This document shows, in pieces, positions 1-42,492 of a DNA stretch of 64,000 nt; positions within the stretch are counted from its first letter, which is position 1; each line of letters opens with the position of its first letter. The notes beneath the pieces were generated by a model. The model was not told the origin of the DNA. It did no database searches and was given only the letters and a program-made list of their open reading frames with translations. Source of the stretch: a virus; IMG/VR virus record IMGVR_UViG_3300020438_003204, positions 3,759 through 67,758 of that record; one strand, given 5' to 3'. Made by a program: the position numbers and the translations under genes.

Positions 1-24
1 CAATATGCAAAAAGTATCACTCAT
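1..24 (-). CDS. 5' end of a probable further N-terminal-twitch radical SAM protein (runs off the window)
   Basis: Reverse complement of 1-24 reads ATG AGT GAT ACT TTT TGC ATA TTG = MSDTFCIL, matching paralog starts MTDTFCVLPF and MSKTFCLHPF. It overlaps the stop of 17..1327. Confidence 0.65.
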
Positions 25-1327
25 ATTGTTGCCTCTTCTGCTCATATAGTCCGCCCATGCGTTGATTTATTTGTTCTAGTTCAGGAAACAACTGCATACT
101 ATTTTTGTTTCTGTGTGTATCCAACAATGCACATCTTAGTAATAGCATTTTCATACCGCCGTCTGTTACTTCAAGTTGAGGTTCTTTTAGCTTGTGATAA
201 ACTATATCCATTTGATTTCTATCAGCTATTAGATGTTCTAACTTTTTTAATGGATCAATTAGTGCAAGTCTATGTGATCTATCAATGAGTTCTAGACGCC
301 ATTCAGGATTATAAACTAAATTTATACATATTTTGTGTTTAAATAAATCATATAATTCTTCTAATAGTGCAGGCAGTCTGACGATATTATAAACTGCGAC
401 ACTTACGATAGGTTGTATCTTAACACCTGCATCTCTGACAGTTATGATATTTTGTTGTACAGTTTGCCATTCAGTGCCATAGCGTATCCATTCTGCACGT
501 TCGCCTGTTTCATCTATACTGCTTTCGACTGCTAGCTTACCATAATTCCAATCACACCAATAGTCTAGTGCATGTTTGCCTTGATGGGACAGTTTGAGCA
601 TGTTACTATTGTATTTTACTTTAACATCAAAACGCTTTGCACTGTGTAGTTTTTCTAATATATACCAGTGACTGGGCATTATCATTGGTTCCCCACCTGC
701 AAAGTATATGTTTTCAACTTGATCAATATATTCGTCTATCCATTGAAAGCTGGGCTCGTCAACTATTTTTGTTTTTCCTAAGGTATCGTGTTGGCGTTTA
801 AAATACCCTAAATTAGGATCACGTTGAATTGTTTTTTCATCAAACTTTTTGATATAGTCTTTGGAATGTTTGATCCACATACTACTCCAATCACTGTTAC
901 ACATCACACAAGCCATATTACATACATTACTGAACCTAAGGTCCCAATACTTTAAATTGTATTCTGCTGTGCCATCTGGTTTGGTTTTATAGATGTAATC
1001 TTGTCTTATTTGTTCACTGTACAATCTTGTGTGTTCTCTTACTCTAGGTGACCTAGCATTCATATCCTCTATTATAGCACATTTACCGCATTCCTTAGGA
1101 ACTTGATTGTTCAACATCTGTCTTCTAACACGCCGCATTGATTCACTGTTAAAAATTTCTTCAACAGTATTTTCATTTAAATTTCCAACGTCTGGTGCGT
1201 TTTTTGTATGACAACACAGTCTAACTCCTCCTTTGGGTGTAATAGCAAGATGACTCCATGGATGTATACATATCCATTCGTCTGATCTAACACGGTACTG
1301 ATCTGCTATAGTTTGTGCGTCAGACAT
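17..1327 (-). CDS. Radical SAM protein with N-terminal twitch/SPASM-like domain
   Basis: N-terminal CIHPW..G.VRLCC..CGKC, CxxxCxxC (CNMACVMC), FAGGEP. Start taken at MSDAQ (1327); the ORF track starts at 1336. Confidence 0.9.
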   Translation of the reverse strand: MSDAQTIADQYRVRSDEWICIHPWSHLAITPKGGVRLCCHTKNAPDVGNLNENTVEEIFNSESMRRVRRQMLNNQVPKECGKCAIIEDMNARSPRVREHTRLYSEQIRQDYIYKTKPDGTAEYNLKYWDLRFSNVCNMACVMCNSDWSSMWIKHSKDYIKKFDEKTIQRDPNLGYFKRQHDTLGKTKIVDEPSFQWIDEYIDQVENIYFAGGEPMIMPSHWYILEKLHSAKRFDVKVKYNSNMLKLSHQGKHALDYWCDWNYGKLAVESSIDETGERAEWIRYGTEWQTVQQNIITVRDAGVKIQPIVSVAVYNIVRLPALLEELYDLFKHKICINLVYNPEWRLELIDRSHRLALIDPLKKLEHLIADRNQMDIVYHKLKEPQLEVTDGGMKMLLLRCALLDTHRNKNSMQLFPELEQINQRMGGLYEQKRQQYE

Positions 1328-2501
1328 AATCAGCAAACTCCGGTATTACTTCGATCATATTAGTACTTCTTGTACGGTCAAGTGTTTTTGTAAAACGTAT
1401 AAACTGTTCAAAGTGTTGGCTTTCGTCTTTTGCATTTAAAAAGTTCAAATTTTGATTTATAAATCTATGTATACGTTTATTGCGTTCACCTTTGGGCTCT
1501 ATAGTATTTAAATATTTTTTATATTTTAGTGTAGCCTTTTGCTTTAGCTCTTGGGGTAATACTTGCGGATTAATGAATATAGGATCCCATGCTATGTTGC
1601 CATGCACTGGTGTGTCCAATACACGTTCGAAGTATTCATAGCTTTCTGGTAATCCAAATACATTCCAAGCACTGTAACACAGTGCCGCTCTGCCATCATA
1701 TTTGTCACCTAGTTCGGCTCTAACTAGTTTTAAATTTTCTGCTAGTACATCTGTATCTGATTCAGTTCTTATATAATTGTTTAATTCAGGGTGTCCGTCT
1801 ATGCTTAAACTTAGATCTACTTTTCTAAACTTTGCCCAGCTGGCTATAGTATCAAACTTTCCAAACTTGACTTTGCTGAGATTTGTGCTATACTTAACTG
1901 TAATATTACTTGCAAAAGGTTCAAGAGCATGTAGTACTTTATAGTGCAAGGGATCCATAAGTGGCTCGCCTCCTGCAAATTCCACTATTTCAATAGTGGG
2001 TGCTAGCTTTACTATGTCCTCTACAAATTGATCATTATCAAAATTTGTTTGACGTTTTGTATCATTTTGCAAATCTAAACTTTCATATTCATGTTTAACT
2101 GCATTCCAGTCTTTGAGCCATGTTGTGCTTAGATCAGGCTTGCATGTTCTGCATCTAAAGTTACACAAGTTACTCATTTTTAATTCTAATACTGGAACAA
2201 CAAACGGCATCTCCGCTGTACAAGAGTCTGGAATCATATATTCTCTGGTCTTGTTCATGCTTTGTCGCATACTAACTGAGCCTTGATCTTCCATATCCCA
2301 ACACTGAAAACAGTGTTTGTTACGCACACCAGACAGTAAATCTTTTCTTAATTGTTGTTGACGTTCACTGTTCCATGCCTCTTCAAAGGTCATGTCTTTG
2401 ATGTTGCCCAACGTATCTCTGCTACGACAACAAGGTGTTATTGCTCCGTCTGGTCTAGTACTTAGATGTGTAAATGGTAATACGCAAAATGTGTCGGTCA
2501 T
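1320..2501 (-). CDS. Radical SAM protein with N-terminal twitch domain
   Basis: FCVLPF..PCC..CFQCW, CNFRCRTC, FAGGEP. Start at MTDTF gives an ATGA overlap with the upstream stop. Confidence 0.9.
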   Translation of the reverse strand: MTDTFCVLPFTHLSTRPDGAITPCCRSRDTLGNIKDMTFEEAWNSERQQQLRKDLLSGVRNKHCFQCWDMEDQGSVSMRQSMNKTREYMIPDSCTAEMPFVVPVLELKMSNLCNFRCRTCKPDLSTTWLKDWNAVKHEYESLDLQNDTKRQTNFDNDQFVEDIVKLAPTIEIVEFAGGEPLMDPLHYKVLHALEPFASNITVKYSTNLSKVKFGKFDTIASWAKFRKVDLSLSIDGHPELNNYIRTESDTDVLAENLKLVRAELGDKYDGRAALCYSAWNVFGLPESYEYFERVLDTPVHGNIAWDPIFINPQVLPQELKQKATLKYKKYLNTIEPKGERNKRIHRFINQNLNFLNAKDESQHFEQFIRFTKTLDRTRSTNMIEVIPEFADYV

Positions 2502-3469
2502 GCAGTCTCCAACCATTTAGTTGTATTAAGGTCTGCGGCACAGTTGCACCACTGCTTTGCACATATAACAGGATCATTTTCAAGTGTGAATCCAGTTTCA
2601 ATATTGCCCAACACTCCGCCTTGTTTACAAGTTGCTCTGTACACACTACCGTCATTGTCTATCATCAGTGTTTCAATGCCAGCCATACACTTCCATTTTT
2701 TAAATGTATTCCATTTGTTTTTGGTTAGTGTATTCACATTGTCTAACCATTGTTCTTCTTGTGTAAACAATTCACAGTTTAAGTCTGCTGTACCGGCTTT
2801 GTTAAAGCTGTCCATATAGTCTAGTTCTGCTTGACTGTAGTATCCTTCTGCTCCTCCAAACTGTATTCCTTCAAACTCCATACCACTAGCACCGGGAGGA
2901 TTAAACTCGCCAGCTTGATTGGTCATTGGTCTAATACGTCTTATATTAAATTTAATACCGTTGTCTTTGAGCCATTCAACTACGTTGTGTATCTCTTCTA
3001 GTCTGCCTGGCAAATACATCAAATGAACTTTTACTTTGTTGTTGGGTAATTCAGTTAATACTGATTTCATATGGTCAACACGCAAGAATTCAAAGTGCCA
3101 ACTGAATATTAAATTATCGATATATTCTAATGCTTGTTGATATTTCTTTAAAGGTAAACTTCCATTGGTAATTGTACTAACTTCTTCTACTCCGTACTTG
3201 GGGAATAGTTTTAATATGTCTAATATTCGTGGGTGTACAAATGGTTCTCCGCCTGTTAAACTCATGCGTATTTGTTTGTCAGCATAAAATTCTCTCAGTG
3301 TTCTTATGGTATATTCAAACTTTTCATAAGGAAAGTGCTTGCTGGTGTTGTCATGCAAATCTCTGCCACAATAACTGCAATCAAAGTTACAGCGTCTACC
3401 CATATTCCATTCAATGCGTACCCATTGTTTATATTTTTTAGCACTGTGTTCTACCCTGATCAGTTTCAT
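2498..3469 (-). CDS. Radical SAM protein with C-terminal Cys-rich (SPASM/twitch-like) domain
   Basis: CNFDCSYC near the N-terminus, LTGGEP, C-terminal CMAG..CKQG..CAKQWCNC. Paralog of 27578..28585. Confidence 0.9.
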   Translation of the reverse strand: MKLIRVEHSAKKYKQWVRIEWNMGRRCNFDCSYCGRDLHDNTSKHFPYEKFEYTIRTLREFYADKQIRMSLTGGEPFVHPRILDILKLFPKYGVEEVSTITNGSLPLKKYQQALEYIDNLIFSWHFEFLRVDHMKSVLTELPNNKVKVHLMYLPGRLEEIHNVVEWLKDNGIKFNIRRIRPMTNQAGEFNPPGASGMEFEGIQFGGAEGYYSQAELDYMDSFNKAGTADLNCELFTQEEQWLDNVNTLTKNKWNTFKKWKCMAGIETLMIDNDGSVYRATCKQGGVLGNIETGFTLENDPVICAKQWCNCAADLNTTKWLETA

Positions 3470-4755
3470 AGTTCACCTACCAGTTCAGGTATATGATCCA
3501 ATACACTTTCACCTCTGATACGATCCAGTTCTCGAGTATATTGTTTGAATAGTTCCCATTGCTCAGGATCGTATTCAGTTCTTAGCATTGCTTCTCTGAG
3601 ATGCTCCATGTTGTGATAGTTTTTATTCCATCGATTTAATACTTTTTGTTTCATATGCGGAGGCATATTATTAGGATCTAAATAAGCAGGATCACTAACA
3701 ACACTATTAAAGTTATTGGGCTTCTCATAACGATTTTTGTGATCGCTGGTTCTATTAGCAAGTAATGTTTTAAATGATCTGGTACTTGATGTTATCTGTT
3801 CAATCCACTCACCTAATTCTTGTAGGTCGAAAATAGTGTATGTGCTAATAGCAATACTAAAGTGTGCATTAACATTATCAAATTGATCAAACCAATATAT
3901 ACTCTGTTCTAGTTGATCAATGTTTTGTATCTTACCGCCTCTAAAATATTCATATAATCCTGGCTTTGAAGTTTCTACACTTATGTTTAAATTAATACGT
4001 TTAAAGTAGGGCCATAGTTCTTCTAGTTCCTCAGGATTTTTCGTGCCATTGGTTACATATCCCAATTCTACATTCTTTGCACTGCCATTATCTATTAGCA
4101 TTCTTAGTACATCATAATGTCCTTGTTGCATAAAAGGTTCACCGCCTTTGAAGTCAATGCGTTCCATATCTTCAAAATAGTGTTGCCTTTCAATCCAATA
4201 ATTGGGATCAACATCTCTAACTTTGGCGTGGTTCACTGCTCTTTTAAATTTTTTATTAATATCATTTAATTTTATATCTTCTTTAAACCAATTTGTACTT
4301 CCCCAACTGCCACAGTGCCTGCATTTTAAATTACAAGTATTACCAAAATTTAAATCCATGTGTTTTAATTTTAAAGGTGATTCGACTGGATAGCTTTTGG
4401 GTTTATTTTTAACTTTATCATATACCCAACTGCGTCTACTATTGTTAAGTGTGCTTTCATTCTTCCAACACTGATTACACTGTATTGGTTTTTCTTGGTT
4501 AGCAAATGCTTTTCTCAGCCATTCAAATCCTTGATGTGCATCTTCTAATGTGTCACCATAATAGAAATTAAAATGTTTGTTATCATTGTCTGCATCATAA
4601 GCACAACAAGGTTTTATGTTGCCATTTGCACTAAGACAAATAGTAGTCCATGGAACAATACACACAGGATCACCTTCTGGTATAGCGTCACCTTGTCTAT
4701 AACTACGTGGATCTTTTTCCTCTGACCACTTTTCGTTAGTATCTAACGTTTTCAT
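3466..4755 (-). CDS. Radical SAM protein with N-terminal twitch domain
   Basis: CIVPW..KPCC..CNQCW, CNLKCRHC, FKGGEP. Confidence 0.9.
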   Translation of the reverse strand: MKTLDTNEKWSEEKDPRSYRQGDAIPEGDPVCIVPWTTICLSANGNIKPCCAYDADNDNKHFNFYYGDTLEDAHQGFEWLRKAFANQEKPIQCNQCWKNESTLNNSRRSWVYDKVKNKPKSYPVESPLKLKHMDLNFGNTCNLKCRHCGSWGSTNWFKEDIKLNDINKKFKRAVNHAKVRDVDPNYWIERQHYFEDMERIDFKGGEPFMQQGHYDVLRMLIDNGSAKNVELGYVTNGTKNPEELEELWPYFKRINLNISVETSKPGLYEYFRGGKIQNIDQLEQSIYWFDQFDNVNAHFSIAISTYTIFDLQELGEWIEQITSSTRSFKTLLANRTSDHKNRYEKPNNFNSVVSDPAYLDPNNMPPHMKQKVLNRWNKNYHNMEHLREAMLRTEYDPEQWELFKQYTRELDRIRGESVLDHIPELVGEL

Positions 4756-6158
4756 AGTAGCTCACTAAGTATAGGAAATACGTCATGAAACTTATTTCCC
4801 CAGTTGCGTTGTTTATTAACTAAGTTTAACCATTGTTTAGTTTCAGGAAGTCTAGCACTCCAGTCTTCTTGATTCATAAAGTTAATAACACCTTTAAAAC
4901 GTTTGATGCCATAAGGTGCATCTAAGAAATCTTGTTTGCTTATACCTGATTCGGCAACTCCTGTAAAACGATCCCAGTTGTCTTCTATCCAAGGATAAAA
5001 CTCTTGTTCGTACTTGTCTGTTATCTGCTGTTTAATATGTTGGGGCAATACTTTTAAATTAAGTTGTGGTGGCCAATATGCATAGTGCATGTTAATACCG
5101 CCGGCACCCAAAGGCCATTTATTGATCTTTTTAAAGTTTTGATTTACTTTCCACTTGACAAACTCTGGTATATACGCTACATTGAGTGCCATAATGGTAG
5201 TAGCTGTAGTAACTTCTACTTGTGGAGCAGTTTCGTCCAATAGCCAAAACACTTTCTCTTGGTGTTCCCATACACTTGGATAGCGTATATAATCGTTGTG
5301 TTCACCATGTGCATCTATGCTGTAGTGAAATCGAACACGTTTAAACTCTGCCCACAGATCAAATAAGTCGTCACGCCATTCAACTGCATTTGAGTTGTAG
5401 CGTAGTTCTATGTTCTTAGCATAACCTTGTTTAATACATTCTTCTAATAGATCGTAGTGTTGTTTAATAATTAAACTTTCGCCACCTGCAAAGTATAATT
5501 GATACATGTGAGGAACCTGTTCCATTAGCTCTTTCCAAAAGCGTGGATTGTTCATGTGCCAATTGTATGTTGCTCCGTGATTCTTTCCTTTATTATCCCA
5601 ACCACTAGTACCTTTAAGATTAGGATTATCTATTTGCGGGTACATAGCTTTCCAGTCTTTGACCCAGCCACTCGAATCATGTGGGCTACACATAACACAA
5701 GCCAACTGACACTTTGTACCCATACGCAAATCAATGTAGCGTATCTTAGGATCTATTGTGCCATCTTCCTGTGTTTCATTTGCTAGGTCAAATAGATCAT
5801 ATCTATTGCCCCAATACTCTGTCTCCCAGTTGCGTTTGCTTAGATGACCAGCTTCTTCCTCTTTGTAACACTTTAAACAAGGTGCTGGCTTTTCACCACG
5901 CAACATCATTTTGCGAACATTACGCATGTAATCCGAATTCCATGCATCAGTTAAACTGGTGTGATTGAAGTTTGCCGGAACACCGTCGTCGTTTTTAACT
6001 ACGCCAACTTCACCGCCGCCTACTTTTTTACTACTGTCTGGGTCTTGAACACTGCTGGCATTTGATGTACAGCATGTTCGCATTTTGCCATCTGGTCTGC
6101 TTGATAAATGTAACCAAGGTAACGCACAAAATGTTGGGCTAATTTTGTCAGTTTTCAT
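4752..6158 (-). CDS. Radical SAM protein with N-terminal twitch domain
   Basis: FCALPW..RTCC..CLKCY, CQLACVMC, FAGGES. Confidence 0.9.
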   Translation of the reverse strand: MKTDKISPTFCALPWLHLSSRPDGKMRTCCTSNASSVQDPDSSKKVGGGEVGVVKNDDGVPANFNHTSLTDAWNSDYMRNVRKMMLRGEKPAPCLKCYKEEEAGHLSKRNWETEYWGNRYDLFDLANETQEDGTIDPKIRYIDLRMGTKCQLACVMCSPHDSSGWVKDWKAMYPQIDNPNLKGTSGWDNKGKNHGATYNWHMNNPRFWKELMEQVPHMYQLYFAGGESLIIKQHYDLLEECIKQGYAKNIELRYNSNAVEWRDDLFDLWAEFKRVRFHYSIDAHGEHNDYIRYPSVWEHQEKVFWLLDETAPQVEVTTATTIMALNVAYIPEFVKWKVNQNFKKINKWPLGAGGINMHYAYWPPQLNLKVLPQHIKQQITDKYEQEFYPWIEDNWDRFTGVAESGISKQDFLDAPYGIKRFKGVINFMNQEDWSARLPETKQWLNLVNKQRNWGNKFHDVFPILSELL

Positions 6159-6163
6159 AACTA

Positions 6164-6170
6164 TATTTAA
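6164..6170 (-). promoter_or_regulatory. Putative late promoter (TTAAATA) 5 nt before ATG
   Basis: Minus strand reads TTAAATA-TAGTT-ATG in a 15-nt intergenic gap, the same spacing as three other sites. Confidence 0.5.
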
Positions 6171-6173
6171 CTG

Positions 6174-7256
6174 CTAATTGAATTGCTCTGCAAACGGATC
6201 AAACTCCGTGCCGCACTTCATAGCACATACTCCTAGTTTTCCTTGCTCTACGCTAGGTAAGTCCCAACTTTTTTCGATATCTTTAAGCAAGGATCCTTGC
6301 ATTACTTGTTGTAAGTCATTGTTTATTACATCAATTCCTTGTTTGCCACCGGCTCTGTCGATAAAATCCCATATTTGTTCTACTTTAGGATCTTGATGCC
6401 ACCATTTGTACATACGTCCAGCGGCCCAACAGCAAGGCATAAGCAAGCCTTCTGCTGTAATAAAGATATTTTTTTCTTCTGCTACTTTGCATTTGATTGA
6501 ACATTTATCATAATAATTCTTCATACCGCCATAAGTTTTGGCTATTTCTTTTTGCTTTAACAATGCTAAGTTTTGATTGCCTAACTGTTTAGGTTTTTCT
6601 ATCAGTTGTGTTTCAACACCTTTACGATTCTGTGCTTGATGGCTGTCTTTACTAACACTTTTAGCACTAAAGAAACGTGCTGACTTTTTCTTTTGGAAAC
6701 GTTCTACACCCCATTGCTTAGAAAGTGCTTCGGCTTCTTCAACCTGATGTTCGTTGTGTCCAAATATAATGTAGTCCCAACGAGCTCTACCGCCTGCATC
6801 AATGAACGCTCGCATGTTGCGTTCTACATTGGCCCAAACAACATTTTGCCTATACAAATGATTAGTGTCGCTAAGACCGTCAACACTGAATATAACGGCA
6901 CCTTGTCGACCAATTGTCTTTGCCAGTTCTTGCCACCATTTAACATCTTTTGCTCCAGCGTTTGTGTTCATACTTAACCACATATCTGTGTTGTATTGTC
7001 TGAAGTATTTGAATACTTCTAGTGTATCCTTAGCTACTATAGGATCACCCAAGTTGCCACACATAAACATTCCAGTGAGTTGTTGAATAAATGCGGGTGT
7101 AAAGATTGCTTGACAGTCTTGTAAACTCAATTCACTATTATCTATATGACGATTGTCAACACCGCCATTCTCATTTCTGTCACACATAGGACAAGCGGCT
7201 TGACACTTTTGCGTAATTTCCAAATGTACCATACGCACATCTTCATAATCATACAT
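6174..7256 (-). CDS. Radical SAM protein with C-terminal SPASM-like cysteines and variant GGE motif
   Basis: CQAACPMC; GNLGDP at the GGEP position; C-terminal C..PCC..CAMKC. Confidence 0.88.
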   Translation of the reverse strand: MYDYEDVRMVHLEITQKCQAACPMCDRNENGGVDNRHIDNSELSLQDCQAIFTPAFIQQLTGMFMCGNLGDPIVAKDTLEVFKYFRQYNTDMWLSMNTNAGAKDVKWWQELAKTIGRQGAVIFSVDGLSDTNHLYRQNVVWANVERNMRAFIDAGGRARWDYIIFGHNEHQVEEAEALSKQWGVERFQKKKSARFFSAKSVSKDSHQAQNRKGVETQLIEKPKQLGNQNLALLKQKEIAKTYGGMKNYYDKCSIKCKVAEEKNIFITAEGLLMPCCWAAGRMYKWWHQDPKVEQIWDFIDRAGGKQGIDVINNDLQQVMQGSLLKDIEKSWDLPSVEQGKLGVCAMKCGTEFDPFAEQFN

Positions 7257-11260: not shown

Positions 11261-11285
11261 TTTAACTCCATTAAGTACATAGTTA

Positions 11286-11300
11286 ATAAATATATTTATG
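11286..11300. promoter_or_regulatory. Bidirectional late-promoter palindrome ATAAATATATTTAT(G)
   Basis: 14-bp perfect palindrome between divergent genes. It gives ATAAATA on both strands and runs into the ATG at 11298. Confidence 0.7.
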
Positions 11301-15122: not shown

Positions 15123-15142
15123 AATTAAATACTCATTTAATG

Positions 15143-34070: not shown

Positions 34071-35523
34071 TATGCTTTTCTTTCCAATCTAAGAACAACT
34101 GTGCAAACTCCGGAAATGTATGACTAAAATCTGTTTTACGTCTATAGTCATGTGCTCCAAAGAATCTAACAAAATTTTCTTCCGCATCTTGTTTCTGCTG
34201 GTCGTTATCAAATCCTTGCTTCATAAATTCAATACTACGATCAAATCTTTCAATTTGATGTGGTTTGAATCCTATCCATCTACTAGCTCTGTGCCTGTCT
34301 TGATTCTCTTTCATAAATGCTAAACACTCGTCAGCAAGATACCAATGACTCTTAGGCGTAAGCTGTAAACTTTGCCACTCCGGATGTCTTAACATAGGTG
34401 TATCCAAAAATACTTTACTGTGACCATATACTACAATTTTACCACTATCATCTCTTCTACTTTTTGTTACATTGTGAATACGCTGTAATTCTAATATACC
34501 TTCCATTAAACGTTGTATGCTAGGTAAACTAAGCATGTTGAACGTTACAATAAACGTTACCAATCCTTCGTCCACTCTAGTTAGATAATTATTTACATTG
34601 TTCCACATGCGATCAAAGTCTAATCCATGACGCATATATTCAGCTTGTCTACCCCATCCATCTACACTAACAAACATACGAAAACGTTTTAGTTTTTTAT
34701 ACTCACTTATGAAACTTACTTTATCAACAAAGTTATTCCACAATTTATCAGGTACACTACAATTTGTAGTTACAGCCATTTCTAAATCGTCTCTGCCATT
34801 GTCAATAACATGATCTAAAACTTTGAATGTATTTTTATCCATGAGCGGTTCTCCGCCTGTCATTCTAAAGTTTTTTAGTTTTGGATAAAGTTCCGGCCAC
34901 CATTCCCAAAATGCATCTACATAAGGATTGTGATCTCTATTTTTAATAGGATATTGTCCTATTTGTTTAAAGTAGTCAATGCTATTGTGAGGTACTTTGG
35001 TTGGATAAGGTCCATTTTGTTCAATATCTTCTGCCCACTTACTGCTTAGATGCGGACTACAATAACTACATGCTAAGTTGCAAGCATGATTAAAATTGAT
35101 CTCCATGCTTGTAGGTTCTATATCGCCATCTGCACCTTTTTCTAATACATCTTTCCAACCAGCTTGTGCCCAAGGTTCGCTACTTCGATAGTGTCTATCA
35201 CTATTAAAATTACGATCCATCTTTTCAATATTCCAACAGTAGTCACACCCGCTAGGTTGTTCTCCTTTGAGCATCATAGCTCGTTGTTCTTTTTTCTCTG
35301 GTGTATTGTGTAATGCTTTTGGATTATTTTTTAGATCTTCTGCATTAATTTTATGTATAGGAGGTAGGTAGCAACTATTAGTTGTTCCATTGGTTAAATG
35401 AATACTGGTCCACAACCATTTAGCCATACACATACTATCACTTATTTCAGCAAGTTTTGGCTTTACTAGTTGTGCGGCTGTTTCCGGATCTGGATCAAGT
35501 TCGTAATTGTTTGTGTTTGTCAT
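34063..35523 (-). CDS. Radical SAM protein with variant N-terminal twitch domain
   Basis: MCMAKW..G.TNSCYLP..CDYCW, CNLACSYC, MTGGEP. Shares NPYVDAFWEWWP with 32388..34070. Confidence 0.9.
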   Translation of the reverse strand: MTNTNNYELDPDPETAAQLVKPKLAEISDSMCMAKWLWTSIHLTNGTTNSCYLPPIHKINAEDLKNNPKALHNTPEKKEQRAMMLKGEQPSGCDYCWNIEKMDRNFNSDRHYRSSEPWAQAGWKDVLEKGADGDIEPTSMEINFNHACNLACSYCSPHLSSKWAEDIEQNGPYPTKVPHNSIDYFKQIGQYPIKNRDHNPYVDAFWEWWPELYPKLKNFRMTGGEPLMDKNTFKVLDHVIDNGRDDLEMAVTTNCSVPDKLWNNFVDKVSFISEYKKLKRFRMFVSVDGWGRQAEYMRHGLDFDRMWNNVNNYLTRVDEGLVTFIVTFNMLSLPSIQRLMEGILELQRIHNVTKSRRDDSGKIVVYGHSKVFLDTPMLRHPEWQSLQLTPKSHWYLADECLAFMKENQDRHRASRWIGFKPHQIERFDRSIEFMKQGFDNDQQKQDAEENFVRFFGAHDYRRKTDFSHTFPEFAQLFLDWKEKHNV

Positions 35524-36293
35524 CGTCTTATGATGTCCTCTTCAATACAATTTTCACCATATTGTACTTCTAATATATGTGCAGGTTTATCACCTTCGTT
35601 GGTTACTTTATGCCACCAATTATTCTGTATCACAAAGTTTGTGTGTTCAGTTAGCATTTGTATTTGCCAGTCTCCATTGGGAAATTCTAAGTTAATTGTA
35701 ACATCACCTTTTAACACATACCAATGTTCACTTCTCATTTTATGTTTCTGGTCGCTTAAACTAGCTCCTGGGTTAATAACTAATTCTTTTACTTTTATAG
35801 TTTTCTTATCATCTAATACACGCCAGTAACCCCATTCACGTTCAGTCTTTTGTGTCCGCCATTCATCTAATATCCAACTGCTTGAATTCTTTTTATCATT
35901 GCCGCCAACTCCAAATGCAAATTCTACATCTGGATGATTACCGTACTCTTCGTATTCTGGAGTTGTAGTATTGCTTCTATCTCCACCATTTGCAAATATT
36001 AATTTACCAGCGTTGGTACATAGTGCTAAAAATATTCCTTGATTCGCTGTATCATCACTATCATCAAATCCAATTATTTTATCTACTACTTCTAATTCTC
36101 TGATAATTGACGCACGTTCTGCAAAAGGCATGAACGCTTTTCCTTTTTTACGCATTAGCCATTCGTCACTGTTTACACCAACGACTAGCTTGTCGCCTAA
36201 TGCTCTAGCGGCTTTGAAATATGCTATATGTCCACTGTGTAGAGGATCAAATCCGCCAGTAACCAGTACTGTAGATTTATTCGATACTGTCAT
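35520..36293 (-). CDS. Cytidylyl/adenylyltransferase (RfaE/TagD-like) fused to a mannose-6-phosphate-isomerase-type cupin
   Basis: TGGFDPLHSGH, GVNSD.WL.RKKG, FANGGDR; C-terminal R.WG, LS.Q.H..RSEHW, WH, EVQ.G....E.DI.R. Start at MTVSNK (36293). Confidence 0.85.
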   Translation of the reverse strand: MTVSNKSTVLVTGGFDPLHSGHIAYFKAARALGDKLVVGVNSDEWLMRKKGKAFMPFAERASIIRELEVVDKIIGFDDSDDTANQGIFLALCTNAGKLIFANGGDRSNTTTPEYEEYGNHPDVEFAFGVGGNDKKNSSSWILDEWRTQKTEREWGYWRVLDDKKTIKVKELVINPGASLSDQKHKMRSEHWYVLKGDVTINLEFPNGDWQIQMLTEHTNFVIQNNWWHKVTNEGDKPAHILEVQYGENCIEEDIIRR

Positions 36294-37254
36294 CAACTTG
36301 GTTTTCTCTAACCATTGCACCAAGTCTGTGTGGATTTTTATAAACCTTCTTAAAGAATCTACTAGCAACTTTGTCCATATCTGAAATTTCTAAATCTAGC
36401 TCACCGCGAAGATCTGCACCAAGTTCTACTGTTTTCTTTTTAAGTTTATCCCAATCCCATGTTACTCCAGTGTTCACACACATTTCAGTTCCGTCTTCAA
36501 ACTCAGGAAATAATTCTGTATTAAAAAAGTTAGTTAACCAATCAAAATCTCTCACATTACGCCAGTCCCACTTGCGTCTTTCAACATTGGTCATATGACA
36601 ACCTAGTCTTGCACCATAAATTGCCCATAAACCGTTTGTTGCATCTTCGCCTACACTCATCCATACTAATAGTCTTTTGTAATTTTCGTGAAATATTTTT
36701 TTGATATCTTTTGCTTCAACTACATCTCCACCTTCTAATCCCATCTTTACGCCTTCACGAAAACCTGCTCTCCATGCTTGTAGTGGACTAGCATTGTTAG
36801 CAACATCACAATAGATGTTATTCATTTGTACATACTGTATGTTCCAACAAAAATCAACCTGTGCGGCTTTATCACTTTCAGGAGCAGCTTCATGTGTACG
36901 CATCTTGTTTACTACGTCTACGGGCCAACATTTGATGCCGCCGTTGCCATATACCAATCCGTTTACTGCATTTTTTCCTGCCCAACTAATAACATCTGTA
37001 TCCTTAATTCTTTCCATGTCTAGTTCGACATTAAAGAAGTCATCTCTAACTACATTATCTGCATCAACTGTAACAAATCTATCTGTATCACTCATTGCCG
37101 CAGCCGCTTTGTGTGCGGCATCACTGCCCCATACTCCATGACTACGTTTTGCCCAAGGACATTTTTCTAATAGATGTGCATAATTTTGTTCAGCGTTTGG
37201 TTCGTCATAGCTGATGAAGACTATATCAAATTCTGTAATTGGTATTAGTGGCAT
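36277..37254 (-). CDS. GT-A fold (GT2-like) glycosyltransferase
   Basis: FISYDEPNA, VDADN, NGLVYGNGG.K, AWRAGFREGVK. Confidence 0.72.
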   Translation of the reverse strand: MPLIPITEFDIVFISYDEPNAEQNYAHLLEKCPWAKRSHGVWGSDAAHKAAAAMSDTDRFVTVDADNVVRDDFFNVELDMERIKDTDVISWAGKNAVNGLVYGNGGIKCWPVDVVNKMRTHEAAPESDKAAQVDFCWNIQYVQMNNIYCDVANNASPLQAWRAGFREGVKMGLEGGDVVEAKDIKKIFHENYKRLLVWMSVGEDATNGLWAIYGARLGCHMTNVERRKWDWRNVRDFDWLTNFFNTELFPEFEDGTEMCVNTGVTWDWDKLKKKTVELGADLRGELDLEISDMDKVASRFFKKVYKNPHRLGAMVRENQVDDSIE

Positions 37255-37258
37255 ATGG

Positions 37259-38257
37259 CTAGCTTTCTGTTATATCAAATGTTGTGTTTCTATTTTCTTC
37301 TCGCAATAGAAATGCACTATTTTTAAGGTCTAATTCGGACTCAATCTCTAATGTGACGTTATATCCGATATCTTTTTTAGGTAACATTAGTGTTCCTAGT
37401 AGTCTATTAGGGTCGTTTTTATCTGTAACATATAAACCCACATCATTATAAATTTTAACTGTTGACGGATCTTTAAAATTACTTCTCAAACTAAAAGAAT
37501 TATCTTTAGATATTATTGTAAAATCACACAGTACTTCGCTATTACTTATCTGTGGAATAATATGCCTTCTTCTAATACTTCTTCTACTTGTATAATCAGC
37601 ACCAACAAATGTTGCTTTCTTTGTAACACGATAGGTCTTAAAGATTTTCTTTGTTAGGATACTCATTTCTCCAAGTCCGCAAACATTTCTAAATGCACTC
37701 ATATCAAATAGCAAGTACCCTTGTTCAACGAGTTCACCCGGATCAATATCAATTTTTTTAATTAAGAAGTTAGGATCTTTGTCTTTAATAATGTATAATG
37801 TAATGTTGTCGTATTTTCCATCTTTCTCTGGATTAATTGTTGCTTGTTTAAAATATCGTTTACCAGTCATTTTATAAAGTGTATCTTGGTCGAAGTTTAC
37901 TTCCATCTTCCAACTGTTGATATACATAATAATGTTTACATCTGCTTTGGTTTTATCATTAACAGGAATCATACTAAGAGACTGTTCAGCTTCTTTGATA
38001 CGCAATACTGCTGACTTTTCTGCTAGTATAAAACTATCTTCTGTTTCAAGTATAGAGAATTTTTTAGGGTCTTGTATACCCATAAGAATTTTTCGTGCAT
38101 CATCATTTTCTGTAAAAAAATGAGGAGACTTAATTTCATCTAACACACGGTTAGTGACTGTTATAACTTCTCCAGAATCATCATCATAGTATACACACCA
38201 TTTTTTAGGTGCTTTTTCTTTTTTTAGATTCTGTAATAAACTTGGTTCTGTAGACAT
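37259..38257 (-). CDS. Hypothetical protein
   Basis: 332-aa ORF inside the GT cassette; internal repeat LY(I/V).DKxDPN.L; no recognised catalytic motif. Confidence 0.7.
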   Translation of the reverse strand: MSTEPSLLQNLKKEKAPKKWCVYYDDDSGEVITVTNRVLDEIKSPHFFTENDDARKILMGIQDPKKFSILETEDSFILAEKSAVLRIKEAEQSLSMIPVNDKTKADVNIIMYINSWKMEVNFDQDTLYKMTGKRYFKQATINPEKDGKYDNITLYIIKDKDPNFLIKKIDIDPGELVEQGYLLFDMSAFRNVCGLGEMSILTKKIFKTYRVTKKATFVGADYTSRRSIRRRHIIPQISNSEVLCDFTIISKDNSFSLRSNFKDPSTVKIYNDVGLYVTDKNDPNRLLGTLMLPKKDIGYNVTLEIESELDLKNSAFLLREENRNTTFDITES

Positions 38258-39083
38258 GCATCACTTCGTCGGTTAAAAATGTTTCGTCGCTATAGTGAAT
38301 AATTCCACTAGGTAGTATATGGTTTTCTATTTGTATCCTTTGGTGATTGGTAACCCAGGTATTCATAAACTCAGTCCATCTTTCTGGAACATCTTCGTCA
38401 AATATTCCATGTGAAAATTTATGTAGATCTATATGGTTGTTTACATAAATTCTTGAATCTATTTCTGCGTCTAAAAAATGTGTTACTAAGTTACACAGTA
38501 CATTTTTCTCAAAATCTTGAGGTTTTTTATCAGTAAACACTTTATTGTATACATCTCTCCAATACTGGAGAACTGGATCTGCCATCTTAAACCATTCAAT
38601 AGCCAATGGAGATTTTTGCTTCCAATATATCATATTATAATATAGTTTAGGAAGTTTATATTGTAGTTCGTATTGAAATCTTAGACCTTGTGCTGCAGAA
38701 TATCCTCTATAGTTATTAGCATTGCCAGGAAAACTAATGTCATTGGTTGACATTAGATCCCATAAAGTCTCTAAATCAGTATTAATCAGCAGTGTGTCGT
38801 AGTCTAAATATATGGTTTCGTCAAAAGGTGTACAATGATAAAGTTGCCATAAATTCATGCCATGGAAACCATCTTTGTAAGCACTGTTACCATAAGGTAA
38901 TTCAACAATGTAGTCAAATATATGTTCATAATATTGGCTTACCATATCTAAACGACCTTTGTCAACTACTAAACAAATTTCAGCAGTAGGATCGATTATT
39001 TTTAAACTACAAGCTAGTGTATAACAGTACTTGATTTTATCTTCGCCTGTGTCAATACCTAATGTAATAAATCCTCTACTCAT
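38205..39083 (-). CDS. GT8-like glycosyltransferase
   Basis: Y...LA.SLK, TPFDETIYLDYD (DxD), IHY near the C-terminus. Confidence 0.7.
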   Translation of the reverse strand: MSRGFITLGIDTGEDKIKYCYTLACSLKIIDPTAEICLVVDKGRLDMVSQYYEHIFDYIVELPYGNSAYKDGFHGMNLWQLYHCTPFDETIYLDYDTLLINTDLETLWDLMSTNDISFPGNANNYRGYSAAQGLRFQYELQYKLPKLYYNMIYWKQKSPLAIEWFKMADPVLQYWRDVYNKVFTDKKPQDFEKNVLCNLVTHFLDAEIDSRIYVNNHIDLHKFSHGIFDEDVPERWTEFMNTWVTNHQRIQIENHILPSGIIHYSDETFLTDEVMHVYRTKFITESKKRKST

Positions 39084-39993
39084 TTACTTTTTCCGCCTCA
39101 TCTAAATTTTCTAATAGACCAAAGTAATGTCTATCTAATGCCCGCTTGTTCATAATGTGTAGATTATTTTCTTTATGTCTAACTAATATATTTTTCCATT
39201 GTTCGACTCTGTTGTGTTTTAAAAATATAATGTCGTCGTGTCCGTTCATTCCTATAATATCATCTTTTTGATCCATGTTTAACAGCGGTGTATTTAGAAA
39301 GTCATGTACAAATTCTTCATTCGTAAACCCATTCATCAGATGTGTGGCAATACTTACACAAAAGTCTGTTCTAAATAATGATTTAGGAAACTGATACAAC
39401 AAACTGTAGTACTCCCAATGTTCTTTTACATGAGCCCACATATCAAAGAATATCTTACTTTCTTCACTTTGATCAAAGTAAACCACAGTACTCCACCAAT
39501 GCTGAATGCCACCCTCATTTAATGTTATCTCATTTATATAAGGACGCTCGCTACCAATATATTCTGCATACCTGTGTAATCCAACAGGAATATCTGTTTC
39601 AAACAGATACTGGTAAAAGTCGTTCATAATTAAAAAGTCTGTGTCTAATAGCAATGTTTTTTCAAAAGGTGTTAGTTCAAAAACTTTATGCTTATTTGTA
39701 TTGGTAAATTGTGCGTTAAACTCTGTCCAAGGACTATCCATGTGTTTACGCATATTTTGTTCGTGTTGCACATTGTTAATTATAATGTAATCAAACAACG
39801 ATTTTATTTCTTGCTGTGTCTTAGTTTCGTTCAGCCAGTTTTCAGTACCTTCGTCAGTTATGAGAGCTACTTTTATTCCGTTCATATAATGCTTGGCATA
39901 ACGTGAAGCCAGACTAGCAAATTTAGTATAATCTAGTTCTTGGTTATTGTATGCGAACATACATATGCCTTGAGGTTCAAATTTTTCTGCCAT
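39076..39993 (-). CDS. GT8-like glycosyltransferase
   Basis: G..MFAYNN..LDY, TPFEKTLLLDTD (DxD), W.TVVYF, FRTDF..S, H.MNK. Confidence 0.7.
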   Translation of the reverse strand: MAEKFEPQGICMFAYNNQELDYTKFASLASRYAKHYMNGIKVALITDEGTENWLNETKTQQEIKSLFDYIIINNVQHEQNMRKHMDSPWTEFNAQFTNTNKHKVFELTPFEKTLLLDTDFLIMNDFYQYLFETDIPVGLHRYAEYIGSERPYINEITLNEGGIQHWWSTVVYFDQSEESKIFFDMWAHVKEHWEYYSLLYQFPKSLFRTDFCVSIATHLMNGFTNEEFVHDFLNTPLLNMDQKDDIIGMNGHDDIIFLKHNRVEQWKNILVRHKENNLHIMNKRALDRHYFGLLENLDEAEKVNE

Positions 39994-40340
39994 TACCAGT
40001 CCATTAATGTTTTAATATTTCTAGCTTTTTTAATTTTATCTAGTTGTACTTTATATTCATTTGTGGATTCGGTATAAGCACTAAGTAATGATTCTAAAAA
40101 ATCAGATAGATCAGTAATCTCAATAGGATTTTCTTTAGTGTCTAATATGATACTAAACGTTTTTCCTTTATCGATCAATGTTTTTATAAAACTGATTGTG
40201 ACAGGATCAGCATGAAACACACCATTATTATAGTGAACAGTTTGTAATACTAATGCTCGTTGCTTTAGTGTATTCTTCTGATTACTTAGAGTGATGCGAT
40301 AATTTGCAAAGTCTAGAGCTTTCTCGAGTCTCTCATCCAT
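39993..40340 (-). CDS. Hypothetical protein (possible fibre-assembly or adaptor protein)
   Basis: 115-aa ORF with a strong AAGGAG RBS; D...NP..I.D...F motif; first gene after the fibre genes. Confidence 0.7.
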   Translation of the reverse strand: MDERLEKALDFANYRITLSNQKNTLKQRALVLQTVHYNNGVFHADPVTISFIKTLIDKGKTFSIILDTKENPIEITDLSDFLESLLSAYTESTNEYKVQLDKIKKARNIKTLMDW

Positions 40341-40401: not shown

Positions 40402-41577
40402 TTAGCTGTCGTCTACACTTGTAAATGAATTAACAATCGAACATGCTGGATTTGGCGTGACATCTAAACTAGTTGCACCGCTTGTGATTGTGTCAGGCAT
40501 TAAGATACTTAATGCAGGTGAGATTGTACCATCAATAATATTTGCATGAGCAGTATCGTCTAGTACAATTTTAAACTGTACACTTGCACCATTATCTACA
40601 TATTTGCCGTACATTCTAAATTTTAACTGTTGGTAACTACTGTAAATGCTATAACTACTAACATAGATAGTATTACTATATGTACCGCCAATAACAGCTC
40701 TTTCAGCCCAATTTGGATATATACCTTTTCCAGTTATATAACCATATGCTTGTCCGCCGCCATATCCGTAACCGTATCCATAACCGTAACTGCCTATTTG
40801 TCTACCTAGCGTAACACCACTACTTTGAAATAGTAGTCCTTCGTTTGTTGCGGCTCCGTCGCTACCATCTCCGTACTTGTCTGTTAAATCGTAAAAACCT
40901 TTGCCTTCACTAGTACCAAGTGTAGTTGCTGTACTTTGTGTCACTGTATCCCAGTCAAAGTTTAATACACCCATTTCATTGATAACATCTGCCCAGTTAT
41001 AGTATCCTGCTGTACTACCGCCGCTCATAGTTAAACTAAGTCTAAGCTGACCGCCTGCATTAAAAAAGTATCTTGCTTTGTTATAACTTCCCCATGTAAA
41101 TTTGTGTTCACCTACTAGTTTAGTTTGCCAACCTGTGGTTCTATCATATGAGCCTCCGCCAGGTGTAATAGGTATCGCACTTGCATTTGTTGGATCAATA
41201 GTTAAATGTTTGTTATTAAGTAAGACTGGGGAAAACTTGTCATCAATTTTATTTAGATCTTCTGCTCTTATAAGAGTTCCAACTCCTATATCAGTTCTAT
41301 TAGTTGGTATTGTAAAAACTAATATACTGTCTGTTAGATCTGTGTGATTAATTGAAATATTCGTCTTTGCTACTAATCCTTGTAATTGTGCCGCTGTGAT
41401 ATCATCAGCTACCGCTACAACTACGTTGCCTGATCCCCAACCATATTTGTGTGTATCAATTCTATTTGCATCTGTTACAGCCGCAGTAGAGTATATATCG
41501 CCAAATACTTTATTAACTTTTGAACCAACTGCATTAAAATGTACAGCGGTTGCAATATCACCTGGGGAATTCGCCAT
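40402..41577 (-). CDS. Virion structural (tail/fibre-associated) protein with a Tyr/Gly-rich segment
   Basis: YGWG, ARYFFNAGG..R motifs as I recall from jumbo-phage structural proteins; position after the baseplate genes; contains SYGYGYGYGYGGGQAYGY. Confidence 0.65.
   Translation of the reverse strand: MANSPGDIATAVHFNAVGSKVNKVFGDIYSTAAVTDANRIDTHKYGWGSGNVVVAVADDITAAQLQGLVAKTNISINHTDLTDSILVFTIPTNRTDIGVGTLIRAEDLNKIDDKFSPVLLNNKHLTIDPTNASAIPITPGGGSYDRTTGWQTKLVGEHKFTWGSYNKARYFFNAGGQLRLSLTMSGGSTAGYYNWADVINEMGVLNFDWDTVTQSTATTLGTSEGKGFYDLTDKYGDGSDGAATNEGLLFQSSGVTLGRQIGSYGYGYGYGYGGGQAYGYITGKGIYPNWAERAVIGGTYSNTIYVSSYSIYSSYQQLKFRMYGKYVDNGASVQFKIVLDDTAHANIIDGTISPALSILMPDTITSGATSLDVTPNPACSIVNSFTSVDDS
40759..40788 (-). 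repeat. (Tyr-Gly)5 coding repeat
   Basis: Codons TAC GGT TAT GGA TAC GGT TAC GGA TAT GGC. Confidence 0.9.
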
Positions 41578-41580
41578 GGT

Positions 41581-42492
41581 TTACTTCGCTCCAACTACTA
41601 CTTCTATCGTACCTGCTTCATCGGTAGTTTTATCTTCTAAAGCTCGTCCTACGACAAACTTCCAACTGTAATCATCTCCTGCTACCATACCCGTACCGGC
41701 TGTAGCACTTGACACAATTCTATCACCTTTATCTACTTTTCCAATTACTTTGCAAGGTACTCTACCTGCTAGTGCAATATATGGATGTGTAGCATCTGTA
41801 CCGGCACTTGCATTCATTTCAAATGCTGGTGCAGTACTTACAACTCCAAAAACTTTAACATCATTTTCTGCTGTAGTTTGTGTGACTTCTTTGTCTCCAC
41901 CTAGTCTGACTATTGTTCCAGCTGCATATTCTGCATCAGCTTCATAACGTTCTGCCAAATCAGCATATTCTGCTGTGGTTGCTGTACCCCTAAACTTATA
42001 GTCTGTTGTGCTATTCATTTGTATGCCTGCTTGAATGCTTGCAAACTGTGTGCTTAGTAGTGTAACACCATCTTCTAGTTTTTCATCATTGTGAGGTGTC
42101 CATGCTATCGTATCATCTGTCGTAATACTAACAATACTTCCGTCAACAATATGTTCTATTGTTTTATGAAAGTTACCACCTGTGTCTTTTCTGTTTCTAA
42201 ACTCAATCTTTGTTGTACCAGATCCGCTTATAATAACACTCCATACACCATTGTCATATATTTTAAGTTGACTATTTGCTGAATCATACCAAAGTTGACC
42301 TTCAGTTGGATTACTAGGAGCTGTACCGTTTGCAAAATTTTCTAACAAGTGCAACATATTTTCGTTTAGCGTTTCACCAAAACGTGTATAGTTTTTACCA
42401 ATTAGTCCAATACTAGTGCTGGTATCTATCGTTCCGTCATTTACAACTATTGCTGTTTTTCCGCTGTTGCTATAATCTATTGTGTATGGCAT
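41581..42492 (-). CDS. Short tail-fibre-like protein with a C-terminal intramolecular chaperone/autocleavage (peptidase G2-like) domain
   Basis: N-terminal GKNY..FGE..NEN..HLLENFA...P..P..GQLWYD; C-terminal YADLAERY, GVVST.P, ALAGRVPCKV.G...KGD.IVSS...G. Confidence 0.7.
   Translation of the reverse strand: MPYTIDYSNSGKTAIVVNDGTIDTSTSIGLIGKNYTRFGETLNENMLHLLENFANGTAPSNPTEGQLWYDSANSQLKIYDNGVWSVIISGSGTTKIEFRNRKDTGGNFHKTIEHIVDGSIVSITTDDTIAWTPHNDEKLEDGVTLLSTQFASIQAGIQMNSTTDYKFRGTATTAEYADLAERYEADAEYAAGTIVRLGGDKEVTQTTAENDVKVFGVVSTAPAFEMNASAGTDATHPYIALAGRVPCKVIGKVDKGDRIVSSATAGTGMVAGDDYSWKFVVGRALEDKTTDEAGTIEVVVGAK

Follow-up and report, generated by a model that had tools for sequence, protein, structure and literature searches.

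The stretch of viral DNA analysed here, 64,000 nucleotides that correspond to bases 3759-67758 of the 67,758-base single virus contig IMGVR_UViG_3300020438_003204 (IMG/VR) and are called the window below, carries a baseplate module and a 3765-aa fibre protein that are read on one strand into an enzyme island. The island is real, intact, conserved and unusually large (>40 kb), and combines 13 intact radical S-adenosylmethionine (radical SAM, rSAM) genes with genes for nucleoside diphosphate (NDP)-sugar synthesis and with proteins predicted to have glycosyltransferase (GT) folds. Its assignment to the building and editing of a glycan is plausible. The fuller reading, that a late cytoplasmic glycan-building and radical-editing pathway would decorate fibre-associated virion proteins, is put forward tentatively, as a possibility somewhat short of probable.

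A conserved enzyme island next to the fibre genes

Among the 49 open reading frames (ORFs) of at least 100 aa that were taken as genes in the window, 47 lie on the minus strand; g17 and g18 are the sole plus-strand genes of the island. Overlaps were found at 33 of the 44 same-strand junctions and gaps of at most 20 nt at five more, in agreement with the original prediction, made from the letters of the DNA, of a single-strand run with overlapping stop and start codons. The same prediction placed an island of about 40 kb beside the fibre and baseplate genes. This linkage is real, and the claimed boundaries were off: the enzymes begin at ~40340 (g39/g38), positions 40402-42492 hold fibre-type genes, and the left end is open, the island continuing past the end of the window. 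The G+C content ranges from 31 to 39%, with a negative GC skew throughout. One ORF, g12 (11283-11663), is improbable as a gene, since it runs across the region where g11 really starts and matches nothing. Stretches of the rSAM, GT and fibre parts were matched without a single difference by contigs from seawater RNA libraries (four runs; depth 2-5); these contigs were not used as evidence of transcription, because DNA carry-over is possible and such contigs give neither starts nor levels.

Related loci share the order g43 - g42 - g41 (1 to ~6 copies) - g40 - g39 - g38 - g37 - (g36) - g35 - rSAMs, which holds down to ~46% identity of g42. Of the g42-centred relatives, 37 extend for 4 kb or more past the last fibre-type gene, and 35 of these have the GT candidates g38/g37. 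Where at least 6 kb was available beyond the last fibre gene, g35/g08 were found in 10 of 11 relatives and rSAMs likewise in 10 of 11. A second block, g08 - g07 - g06 - g05 followed by variable rSAM arrays, keeps its order in most g05-centred loci, and the two conserved blocks lie close together in most relatives. The sugar block g09-g27 looks like an insertion, because it is restricted to close relatives. The linkage of the island to the fibre genes, which had been proposed as a check on the prediction, was borne out by the 35 of 37 informative relatives and by the cultured Ralstonia phage RsoM2USA (MG752970).

RsoM2USA, described as a strictly lytic jumbo phage (PMC8504454), was the only cultured phage in which g38 and g35 were matched. 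Its ORF347-355, annotated as hypothetical throughout, comprise in this order a g40/41-like fibre protein, g39, g38, g37, ORF351, g35, a g33-type rSAM, g08 and g07, with identities to the window proteins of 31% for g38, 43% for g35, 38% for the rSAM, 40% for g08 and 27% for g07; ORF351 is an extra ORF without a match to the proteins of the window. The block lies directly behind the giant virion protein ORF361, the counterpart of g43, which was detected in virions by mass spectrometry (PMC8504454). The genome holds two genes of the rSAM family N_Twi_rSAM described below, and at the place of the block it lacks the 74-aa ORF s74, the g06/g05 pair, the (GY)n repeat of g40 and the sugar block.

Judged by its sequence, the window phage, which is marine and uncultured, is a Rak2/GAP32/RsoM2USA-like jumbo phage. 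Its gp6-like protein is 34-39% identical to gp6 of the jumbo phages Phosso, SCTP-2, BF, GAP32 and CBB, and nothing closer was found among 50,697 phage records, to which the first 25 kb of the window gave zero megablast matches. Since the related contigs in IMG/VR are as long as 275 kb (estimated completeness 77%), and homologs in the database occur on contigs of up to ~345 kb, the genome size of the lineage is put at ~350 kb.

Predicted glycosyltransferase folds and radical SAM genes

No Pfam glycosyltransferase domain was found in the proteins of the window, even at E values up to 5 for ten unannotated proteins, and by the same limit g38 and g37 are not members of Glyco_transf_8. The glycosyltransferases of the original prediction therefore stand as a GT fold in two structure models, g38 and g35, each with a paralog, and not as recognisable domains. 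The AlphaFold model of g38 (39076..39993, minus strand; pLDDT 93), a GT8/GT24-like GT-A glycosyltransferase with a DTD motif, was matched by Foldseek in the PDB to the catalytic domain of UGGT, glycogenin-1/2, GlyE, LgtC, XXYLT1 and LARGE1 (E from 7e-8, probability 1.0, TM 0.37-0.52) and, among viral models, to GT8 proteins of giant viruses and cyanophage GTs. In this model the GT-A fold and its DxD motif, of which D117 and D119 are invariant in the alignment, resemble those of GT8/GT24 structures. Most of the best fold matches are protein-directed GT8/GT24 enzymes (UGGT, glycogenin, GlyE, XXYLT1 and LARGE1). A g38 profile searched against the PDB reached glycogenin at E 0.02 only. The adjoining g37 (38205..39083, minus strand) is a second GT8-like candidate, with a DYD motif read in its sequence; it is co-conserved with g38, and its N-terminus aligns also to the g38-type ORF of RsoM2USA.

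The second model, g35 (36277..37254, minus strand; pLDDT 90; DAD motif), has a GT-A-like fold whose Foldseek matches in the PDB were WrtF, the peptide S-glycosyltransferases SunS/ThuS, PBCV-1 A64R and TarP, at E values of ~1e-4 to 1e-3. Its paralog g08 (8500..9204, minus strand), also with a DAD motif, is 34% identical, and the alignment contains 10 invariant columns. Another paralog family unites g16 and g20 with the N-terminus of g19; one of the Atlas clusters nearest to g16, a viral one (0.96), bears the automatic name 'Glycosyltransferase family protein', which is a lead only. From the two models and from paralogy the island is predicted to encode at least two, and probably at least four, GT-fold proteins, which are too divergent for Pfam. 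Searches of Pfam (E up to 5) and PHROGs returned nothing useful for g07, g08, g16, g20, g25 and g35-g40, and phmmer and profile searches of the PDB with g06, g07, g25 and two alignments (A1, which includes g08, and A6) gave nothing or chance matches only.

The count of 13 or more radical SAM enzymes in the original prediction was exact for the window (Pfam Radical_SAM and/or SPASM), and three further N-twitch rSAMs of the same architecture lie in the 3.7 kb of the contig to its left. Both blocks of these genes are on the minus strand: block 1 (26060..35523) consists of g33, g32, g31, g30, g29, g28 and g26 and encloses the SnoaL-like g27 (27286-27606; Pfam), and block 2 (17..7256) of g06, which has a C-terminal Cys cluster, g05, g04, g03, g02 and g01. 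The motif CX3CX2C is present in all 13 proteins and GGE[PS] in 12, g06 being the exception; from these superfamily motifs radical SAM activity is predicted.

In 10 of the 13 a SPASM-like Cys-rich domain stands N-terminal to the rSAM core. Exactly this order is modelled by the NCBIfam family NF033640 (N_Twi_rSAM, twitch domain-containing radical SAM protein), the curated cut-off of which is 170 bits. The scan covered ten rSAMs (all except g31, g32 and g33), and seven of them passed: g01 (294 bits), g02 (343), g04 (251), g05 (422), g26 (291), g29 (298) and g30 (381). Because their matches cover the full length of the model, the N-terminal position of the SPASM domain is genuine, and an artefact of gene boundaries was ruled out. 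With 34-37 bits, g03, g06 and g28 are non-members and represent other rSAM types with C-terminal Cys clusters. In the alignment of ten N-twitch paralogs C11, C29, C94, C97, C150/C154/C157 and GGE are invariant, and g31-g33 share the same invariant Cys residues. The island proteins thus follow NF033640 in having an N-terminal Cys-rich domain and then the rSAM core, here in 13 or more copies on a single contig. Related jumbo phages differ in how many N_Twi_rSAM matches they have: 14, 18, 1 and 8 were counted in four large marine relatives (G403-G406) and two in RsoM2USA (W01).

A profile of the ten paralogs was compared with solved structures, and the best match was the twitch domain of BtrN (E 1.6e-7), followed by generic rSAM cores that include the sugar decarboxylase BlsE at E 0.002. 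BtrN, the 2-deoxy-scyllo-inosamine dehydrogenase of butirosin biosynthesis (PDB 4M7T/4M7S), is likewise a twitch rSAM and acts on a carbohydrate-like substrate, and the island also offers an aminotransferase partner. In contrast to the island rSAMs, its twitch is C-terminal (chain residues 183-258), so that the order is permuted, and the likeness, by sequence profile alone, spans only ~73 profile positions. In the established chemistry of twitch enzymes such as BtrN, an unactivated carbon is oxidised and the auxiliary cluster accepts the electron. Twitch enzymes and their auxiliary Fe-S cluster are reportedly treated in a 2015 review by Grell, Goldman and Drennan. No published reaction of an N_Twi_rSAM member was found in a mostly open-access literature search, supplements excluded, which yielded generic twitch/SPASM papers only.

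A single rSAM paralog retrieved 5569 database proteins at E ≤1e-5, nearly all unnamed and from marine metagenomes, and zero relatives among bacterial genome contigs. When a 402-aa database homolog served as query, two bacterial loci were obtained, one with a broken gene. In a metagenome-assembled genome (MAG) of the Flavobacteriaceae the rSAM homolog is flanked on one side by PhyH dioxygenases and an ABC-2 transporter, and on the other by a GDSL protein, a UbiA-type transferase, a GT1, an epimerase, a UDP-glucose dehydrogenase and a GT2. The family occurs in 5 of 401 sampled genomes of the phylum of this MAG, with 2-4 adjacent copies in three of the five. Among 38 neighbours scanned at four further bacterial loci, PhyH proteins (6), B12-binding rSAMs (3), methyltransferases (3) and GDSL proteins (3) were found, as well as one carbamoyltransferase, one WelO5-type halogenase and one GT2. 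Together with the likeness to BtrN, this context points to rSAMs that would tailor a carbohydrate or carbohydrate-like product.

NDP-sugar synthesis, as originally predicted, is represented by domains of SIS, epimerase-like, nucleotidyltransferase-like, short-chain dehydrogenase/reductase (SDR), DegT and dehydrogenase type, found with Pfam and NCBIfam in the sugar block g09-g25 (9330..26127, both strands). On the minus strand this block encodes an NDP-sugar dehydrogenase (g24), a TylC3-type sugar C-methyltransferase (g23), a methyltransferase-like protein (g22), a GDP-fucose-synthase-like SDR (g21), a DegT aminotransferase (PseC/LegC-like) behind an unassigned N-domain (g19), a Ru5P-3-epimerase-like protein (g15), an NTP-transferase-like protein (g14), a SIS protein (g13), an APS-kinase-like P-loop kinase (g11), a cytidylyltransferase-like protein (g10) and the N-domain of a carbamoyltransferase (g09, 9330-10295); g16 and its paralog g20 have no assigned function, and g25 is without a useful match. 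The plus-strand genes are an SDR (g18) and a cupin (g17). Outside the block, g34 (35520..36368, minus strand; Pfam, NCBIfam) fuses a cytidylyl/adenylyltransferase-like domain to a mannose-6-P-isomerase-type cupin. The SDRs are of dehydratase, epimerase and reductase types; three genes were counted as SDRs or cupin and two as nucleotidyltransferase-like. Of the methyl-, sulfo- and carbamoyltransferases that had been named, the first is present as the sugar C-methyltransferase, no sulfotransferase domain was found in the window, only the APS-kinase-like P-loop protein, and the carbamoyltransferase is confined to its N-domain: the alignment of g09, a gene flanked by gaps of 125 and 175 nt, with a bacterial carbamoyltransferase of 603 aa is limited to residues 8-372 of the latter, and the C-terminal YrdC-like domain is missing.

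Such an enzyme set could also have an auxiliary metabolic role and serve a free small molecule that stays unattached, be it a metabolite resembling aminoglycosides or nucleoside antibiotics or a soluble product of another kind. A BtrN-like rSAM, a DegT aminotransferase, a C-methyltransferase, a carbamoyltransferase and a SnoaL-like protein together look aminoglycoside-like, and a WelO5-type halogenase and PhyH dioxygenases are encoded near the bacterial homologs. We nevertheless consider this very improbable: the island has four predicted GT-fold proteins and a conserved position beside the fibre genes, neither an exporter nor a resistance gene was found in the window by Pfam or the membrane scan, and rSAM matches that range from 1 to 18 among related phages suit surface diversity better than a fixed metabolite.

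Proposed timing and target of the pathway

The heptamer ATAAATA occurs 8 times in the window, against 37.5 ± 6.1 expected from shuffles (an approximately fivefold depletion), and TATAAATA once against 11.6 expected. Five of the six minus-strand copies of ATAAATA precede, at a distance of 6-40 nt, the starts of gp25, g42, g39, g16 and g11, that is, ahead of genes in both the structural (gp25, g42) and the enzymatic part (g39, g16, g11), as the original prediction had it. The motif of g11 precedes a downstream ATG, the product of which opens with the P-loop, and the true start of g42 is probably the ATG at 43103, 20 nt past TATAAATA, where its homologs start aligning. In 142 related loci (2.37 Mb), 264 coding-strand copies of ATAAATA were counted against 88 on the opposite strand; 118 of the coding-strand copies stand before homolog starts, positions that are approximate in these loci, mostly those of g39-g42 and also of g03, g05 and g06. 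A TATAAATA-like element that stands a short way ahead of late genes and is avoided elsewhere is what characterises T4-type late units, and ATAAATA behaves like a T4-type late promoter common to the structural and enzymatic parts; from this motif we infer a late timing of the island. The motif also occurs twice as the palindrome ATAAATATATTTAT (15143-15156 and 11286-11299), and one of these copies is in the divergent gap between g16 (minus strand) and g17/g18 (plus strand).

A Kyte-Doolittle scan of g01-g42, although crude, revealed no membrane-helix-like hydrophobic window of 19 residues, the only exceptions being an internal helix and a Rossmann strand, and the Pfam scan of the window revealed no domain of a polyprenyl-phosphate transferase, flippase, polymerase, ligase or transporter. 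By these two scans the island is without the initiating membrane transferase, the flippase/polymerase and the ABC transporter of a surface-polysaccharide cluster, and the substrates of the pathway would therefore be cytoplasmic.

Gene content, folds, motifs, synteny and the absence of membrane proteins were observed here, and we infer from them a chemistry for the rSAMs and a target. A phage-encoded cytoplasmic pathway would make nucleotide-activated unusual sugars, which the GT8-like and GT-A-like glycosyltransferases would transfer. By analogy, the BtrN-like N-twitch rSAMs might abstract hydrogen at unactivated sugar carbons, with the auxiliary cluster receiving the electron, and thereby oxidise, epimerise or dehydrate the sugar. 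Transcription of the island would go together with that of the late structural genes, and the glycan would be attached to fibre-associated virion proteins, namely g40, g41 or the 3765-aa g43; it would change as relatives acquire or lose rSAM and sugar genes. Virion proteins are favoured as target by the soluble character of the pathway, by position and shared motif, and by the mostly protein-directed GT8/GT24 matches. The complex tailored glycan made with late structural genes that the original prediction envisaged thus has indirect support, from the GT folds, NDP-sugar genes, BtrN-like rSAMs, bacterial polysaccharide locus, motif and linkage.

Several points weigh against decoration of virion proteins. 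Late expression is read from a motif and not from transcripts, and the position beside the fibre genes may only reflect a hyperplastic region. Because the loci are kin, the linkage counts express conservation within one lineage and not independent events. The TM-scores of g35 are low (~0.3), and every NCBIfam match of the sugar genes is under its curated cut-off, so that no specific sugar can be named. The bacterial context of the rSAMs consists of one polysaccharide locus and four mixed loci only. GT8 also takes in lipopolysaccharide (LPS) enzymes, with LgtC among the matches of g38, and the analogous host recognition cluster (HRC) of pelagimyophages has been read as modifying the host O-chain (PMC7029224). 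DNA-modifying phage GT-A enzymes, which place diverse glycans on 5-hydroxymethylcytosine (5hmC), resemble JGT and also TarP, one of the fold matches of g35 (bioRxiv 10.1101/2023.12.21.572611).

LgtC and the HRC are in keeping with remodelling of the host surface, in which the NDP-sugars and transferases would alter LPS, capsule or S-layer glycan of the host and could bring about superinfection exclusion or keep progeny from adsorbing to lysing cells. Sugar genes of O-antigen or capsule type would fit this, as would the bacterial N_Twi_rSAM within an ABC-transporter-type polysaccharide locus. We regard it as unlikely, given that the Pfam and membrane scans revealed no polyprenyl-phosphate transferase, flippase, polymerase, ligase, transporter or membrane segment, and given a promoter-like motif common with the structural genes, which would leave little time for surface turnover, and the conservation of the module in a phage described as strictly lytic, RsoM2USA (PMC8504454).

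Three small or repetitive features bear on another possibility, maturation of a protein or peptide. The unlisted 74-aa ORF s74 (7249..7473, minus strand) overlaps g07 by 4 nt and g06 by 8 nt. Its conservation is far above that of its neighbours, with 47-97% identity among 36 distinct homologs and 34 of 74 columns invariant; it is represented by 1672 clusters in the protein database, has no Pfam domain on record among its homologs and no relative in the PDB. A predicted complex of g06 and s74 scored 0.00 in a run without controls and counts neither way. The 38-aa ORF p38 (9213..9329, minus strand), between g09 and the GT-A gene g08, ends in DPFIYE, and this end is invariant in five relatives that also hold g09. 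The fibre-associated protein g40 (40402..41577, minus strand), aligned with 11 homologs (12 sequences), carries at ~residues 270-300 a (GY)n repeat of variable length (e.g. GYGYGYGYG; longer in locus L003). In RsoM2USA ORF355 the central domain of g40 is joined to a g41-type N-terminus. Between the (GY)n-bearing g40 and the pair of glycogenin-like GT genes just downstream of it, the small g39 is the only gene.

Some or all of the rSAMs might cross-link or epimerise s74, p38 or fibre-type proteins (in g40, for instance, its (GY)n loop), and glycosylation would then be an independent step or a subsequent one. Most SPASM/twitch enzymes act on proteins, and translational coupling of s74 to g07 and g06 together with its conservation over the whole length, the invariant DPFIYE end of p38, the retention of a variable (GY)n repeat in g40 and a weak NCBIfam likeness to peptide maturases, all far under cut-off, speak for such maturation. 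It appears rather improbable all the same, as the best solved twitch relative is the sugar enzyme BtrN, the bacterial homologs stand among sugar and tailoring genes where no obvious precursor was seen, s74 is without a variable core, the GT/rSAM core of RsoM2USA is accompanied by neither s74 nor a (GY)n repeat, and Cys-His-x-Ser tails are absent from the coding strand of the contig.

RsoM2USA adds a further point against virion proteins as the target, in the form of a divergent ThyA-family ORF of 296 aa at ~7.7-8.4 kb of its record (L167). The best solved relatives of this ORF are T4 dCMP hydroxymethylase (E 1.4e-22) and the CMP hydroxymethylase MilA, with thymidylate synthases at ~1e-10, and because dCMP hydroxymethylase is closest, RsoM2USA may carry 5hmC-type DNA; the available portion of its description contains no mention of modified DNA (PMC8504454). 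The original prediction had reported no genes for DNA-base modification, and this held: the window contains zero Pfam domains of this kind, and no ThyA-like or Tet/JBP domain was found with Pfam in the 68-kb contig. The argument drawn from it against DNA as target is weakened, since the only cultured phage with the core module has a dCMP-hydroxymethylase-like protein. Among four partial marine relatives (50-77% complete), two have a canonical ThyA (~340 bits) and two no ThyA match, and Tet_JBP was absent from five records in a search without positive control.

With DNA as substrate, the GTs would glycosylate hydroxymethyl-pyrimidines, and the sugar, rSAM and carbamoyl enzymes would elaborate the glycan. 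The hydroxymethylase-like gene and the likeness of g35 to TarP speak for such hypermodification, which is decidedly improbable in view of the rest: the gene is ~210 kb from the core module in RsoM2USA, the contig has no ThyA-like domain by Pfam, its partial marine relatives show canonical ThyA or nothing, and the invariant columns of g35 are without the R...DDD...EDY/F motifs, a comparison made by published description only. Moreover, pathways of DNA modification usually cluster with ThyS/5mYOX and replication genes (10.1101/2023.12.21.572611), whereas here fibre genes adjoin.

Decoration of virion proteins, the tentatively favoured reading, can be carried one step further, into a speculative and quite improbable form. 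The core (two glycogenin-like GTs, two GT-A proteins, the N-twitch rSAMs, s74 and the DPFIYE peptide) would be a novel type of virion maturation system, in which sugar is placed on Tyr-rich loops of fibre-associated proteins, like the (GY)n of g40, and rewritten in situ by an expandable set of rSAMs; the receptor-binding surface would thus be varied or protected by enzymatic chemistry and not by protein sequence.

Neighbouring genes, related systems and significance

The genes upstream of the island, all on the minus strand, provide its structural context. The T4-type baseplate module (54423..63932; Pfam GPW_gp25 and Phage_gp53, PHROGs baseplate families) comprises a gp53-like protein (63630-63932), a 914-aa virion protein, a gp5-like hub (59310-60881), a 305-aa protein, gp25 (58001-58363; Pfam GPW_gp25) and the gp6-like wedge protein of 1192 aa (54423-58001). 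It is followed by g43 (43126..54423), the 3765-aa virion/fibre protein, which matches phrog_10938 'virion structural protein' at E 3e-216; at residues 2129-2153 it has a weak match to the carbohydrate-binding module CBM_5_12 (E 1.7e-4, under cut-off). The conserved junction protein g42 (42504..43187; phrog_11259) is found in at least 599 related stretches in IMG/VR, and g41 (41581..42492) is a fibre-type protein with matches to PHROGs tail fibre and virion families. Within the island, g39 (39993..40340) is a conserved 115-aa protein with ATAAATA ahead of the gene at 40375-40381, and g07 (7470..8513) a conserved Cys-rich protein with zero Pfam, PHROG and PDB matches, for which Atlas features alone give a weak methyltransferase lead.

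Similar islands have been noted in print only in passing, and the present one is a variant of a kind already noticed. A marine T4-like phage known as an environmental viral genome (EVG) has 12 rSAM genes (Nishimura et al. 2017; PMC5332604), and the HRC was described for pelagimyophages and cyanomyophages (Zaragoza-Solas et al. 2020; PMC7029224). As in the window, these are marine phages with a large variable island in the structural region that combines fibres, GT8-type GTs, LPS-type genes and rSAM cassettes. They differ in being T4-like phages of ~150-180 kb, whereas the window phage has a Rak2/GAP32-type gp6 and belongs to a ~350-kb lineage; in their available portions, the two papers give one sentence each to the rSAMs, favour modification of the host O-chain, and do not describe the core of g39, two GT8 proteins, GT-A, rSAM, GT-A and g07. 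A 'moraphage' paper (PMC12619734) concerns another lineage, and the portion of it that was available mentions neither radical SAM nor RsoM2USA. In the literature found, mostly outside subscription journals and with supplements excluded, neither a jumbo-phage island of this type nor the conserved core module was described.

Virus-encoded soluble GTs near structural genes are also a feature of the chlorovirus PBCV-1, whose A64R is a fold match of g35 (E 9e-4). Glycosylation of capsid and tail tube in mycobacteriophages was reportedly described by Freeman et al. in 2023. To our knowledge, no rSAM enzymes take part in chlorovirus or mycobacteriophage virion glycosylation. For the island, attachment of a glycan to virions is a proposal. 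Phage DNA glycosylation, by T4 alpha/beta-GT or in GT-A/GT-B hypermodification of 5hmC (Pyle et al.; 10.1101/2023.12.21.572611), similarly pairs phage GT-A enzymes with sugar-modifying neighbours; unlike those, the island does not adjoin ThyS, 5mYOX or replication genes, and neither rSAM nor carbamoyl occurs in the available text of that preprint.

As the cultured phage RsoM2USA carries a minimal core, the question of what these genes modify is open to experiment. N_Twi_rSAM is a family with thousands of members; once a substrate is assigned to it, rSAM chemistry on carbohydrates (or proteins) would gain a new branch. Should the product be located on the virion, the island would represent the first phage glycan-editing system based on radical SAM chemistry, and in abundant marine jumbo phages host range or stability would be determined by a second layer that is not protein.

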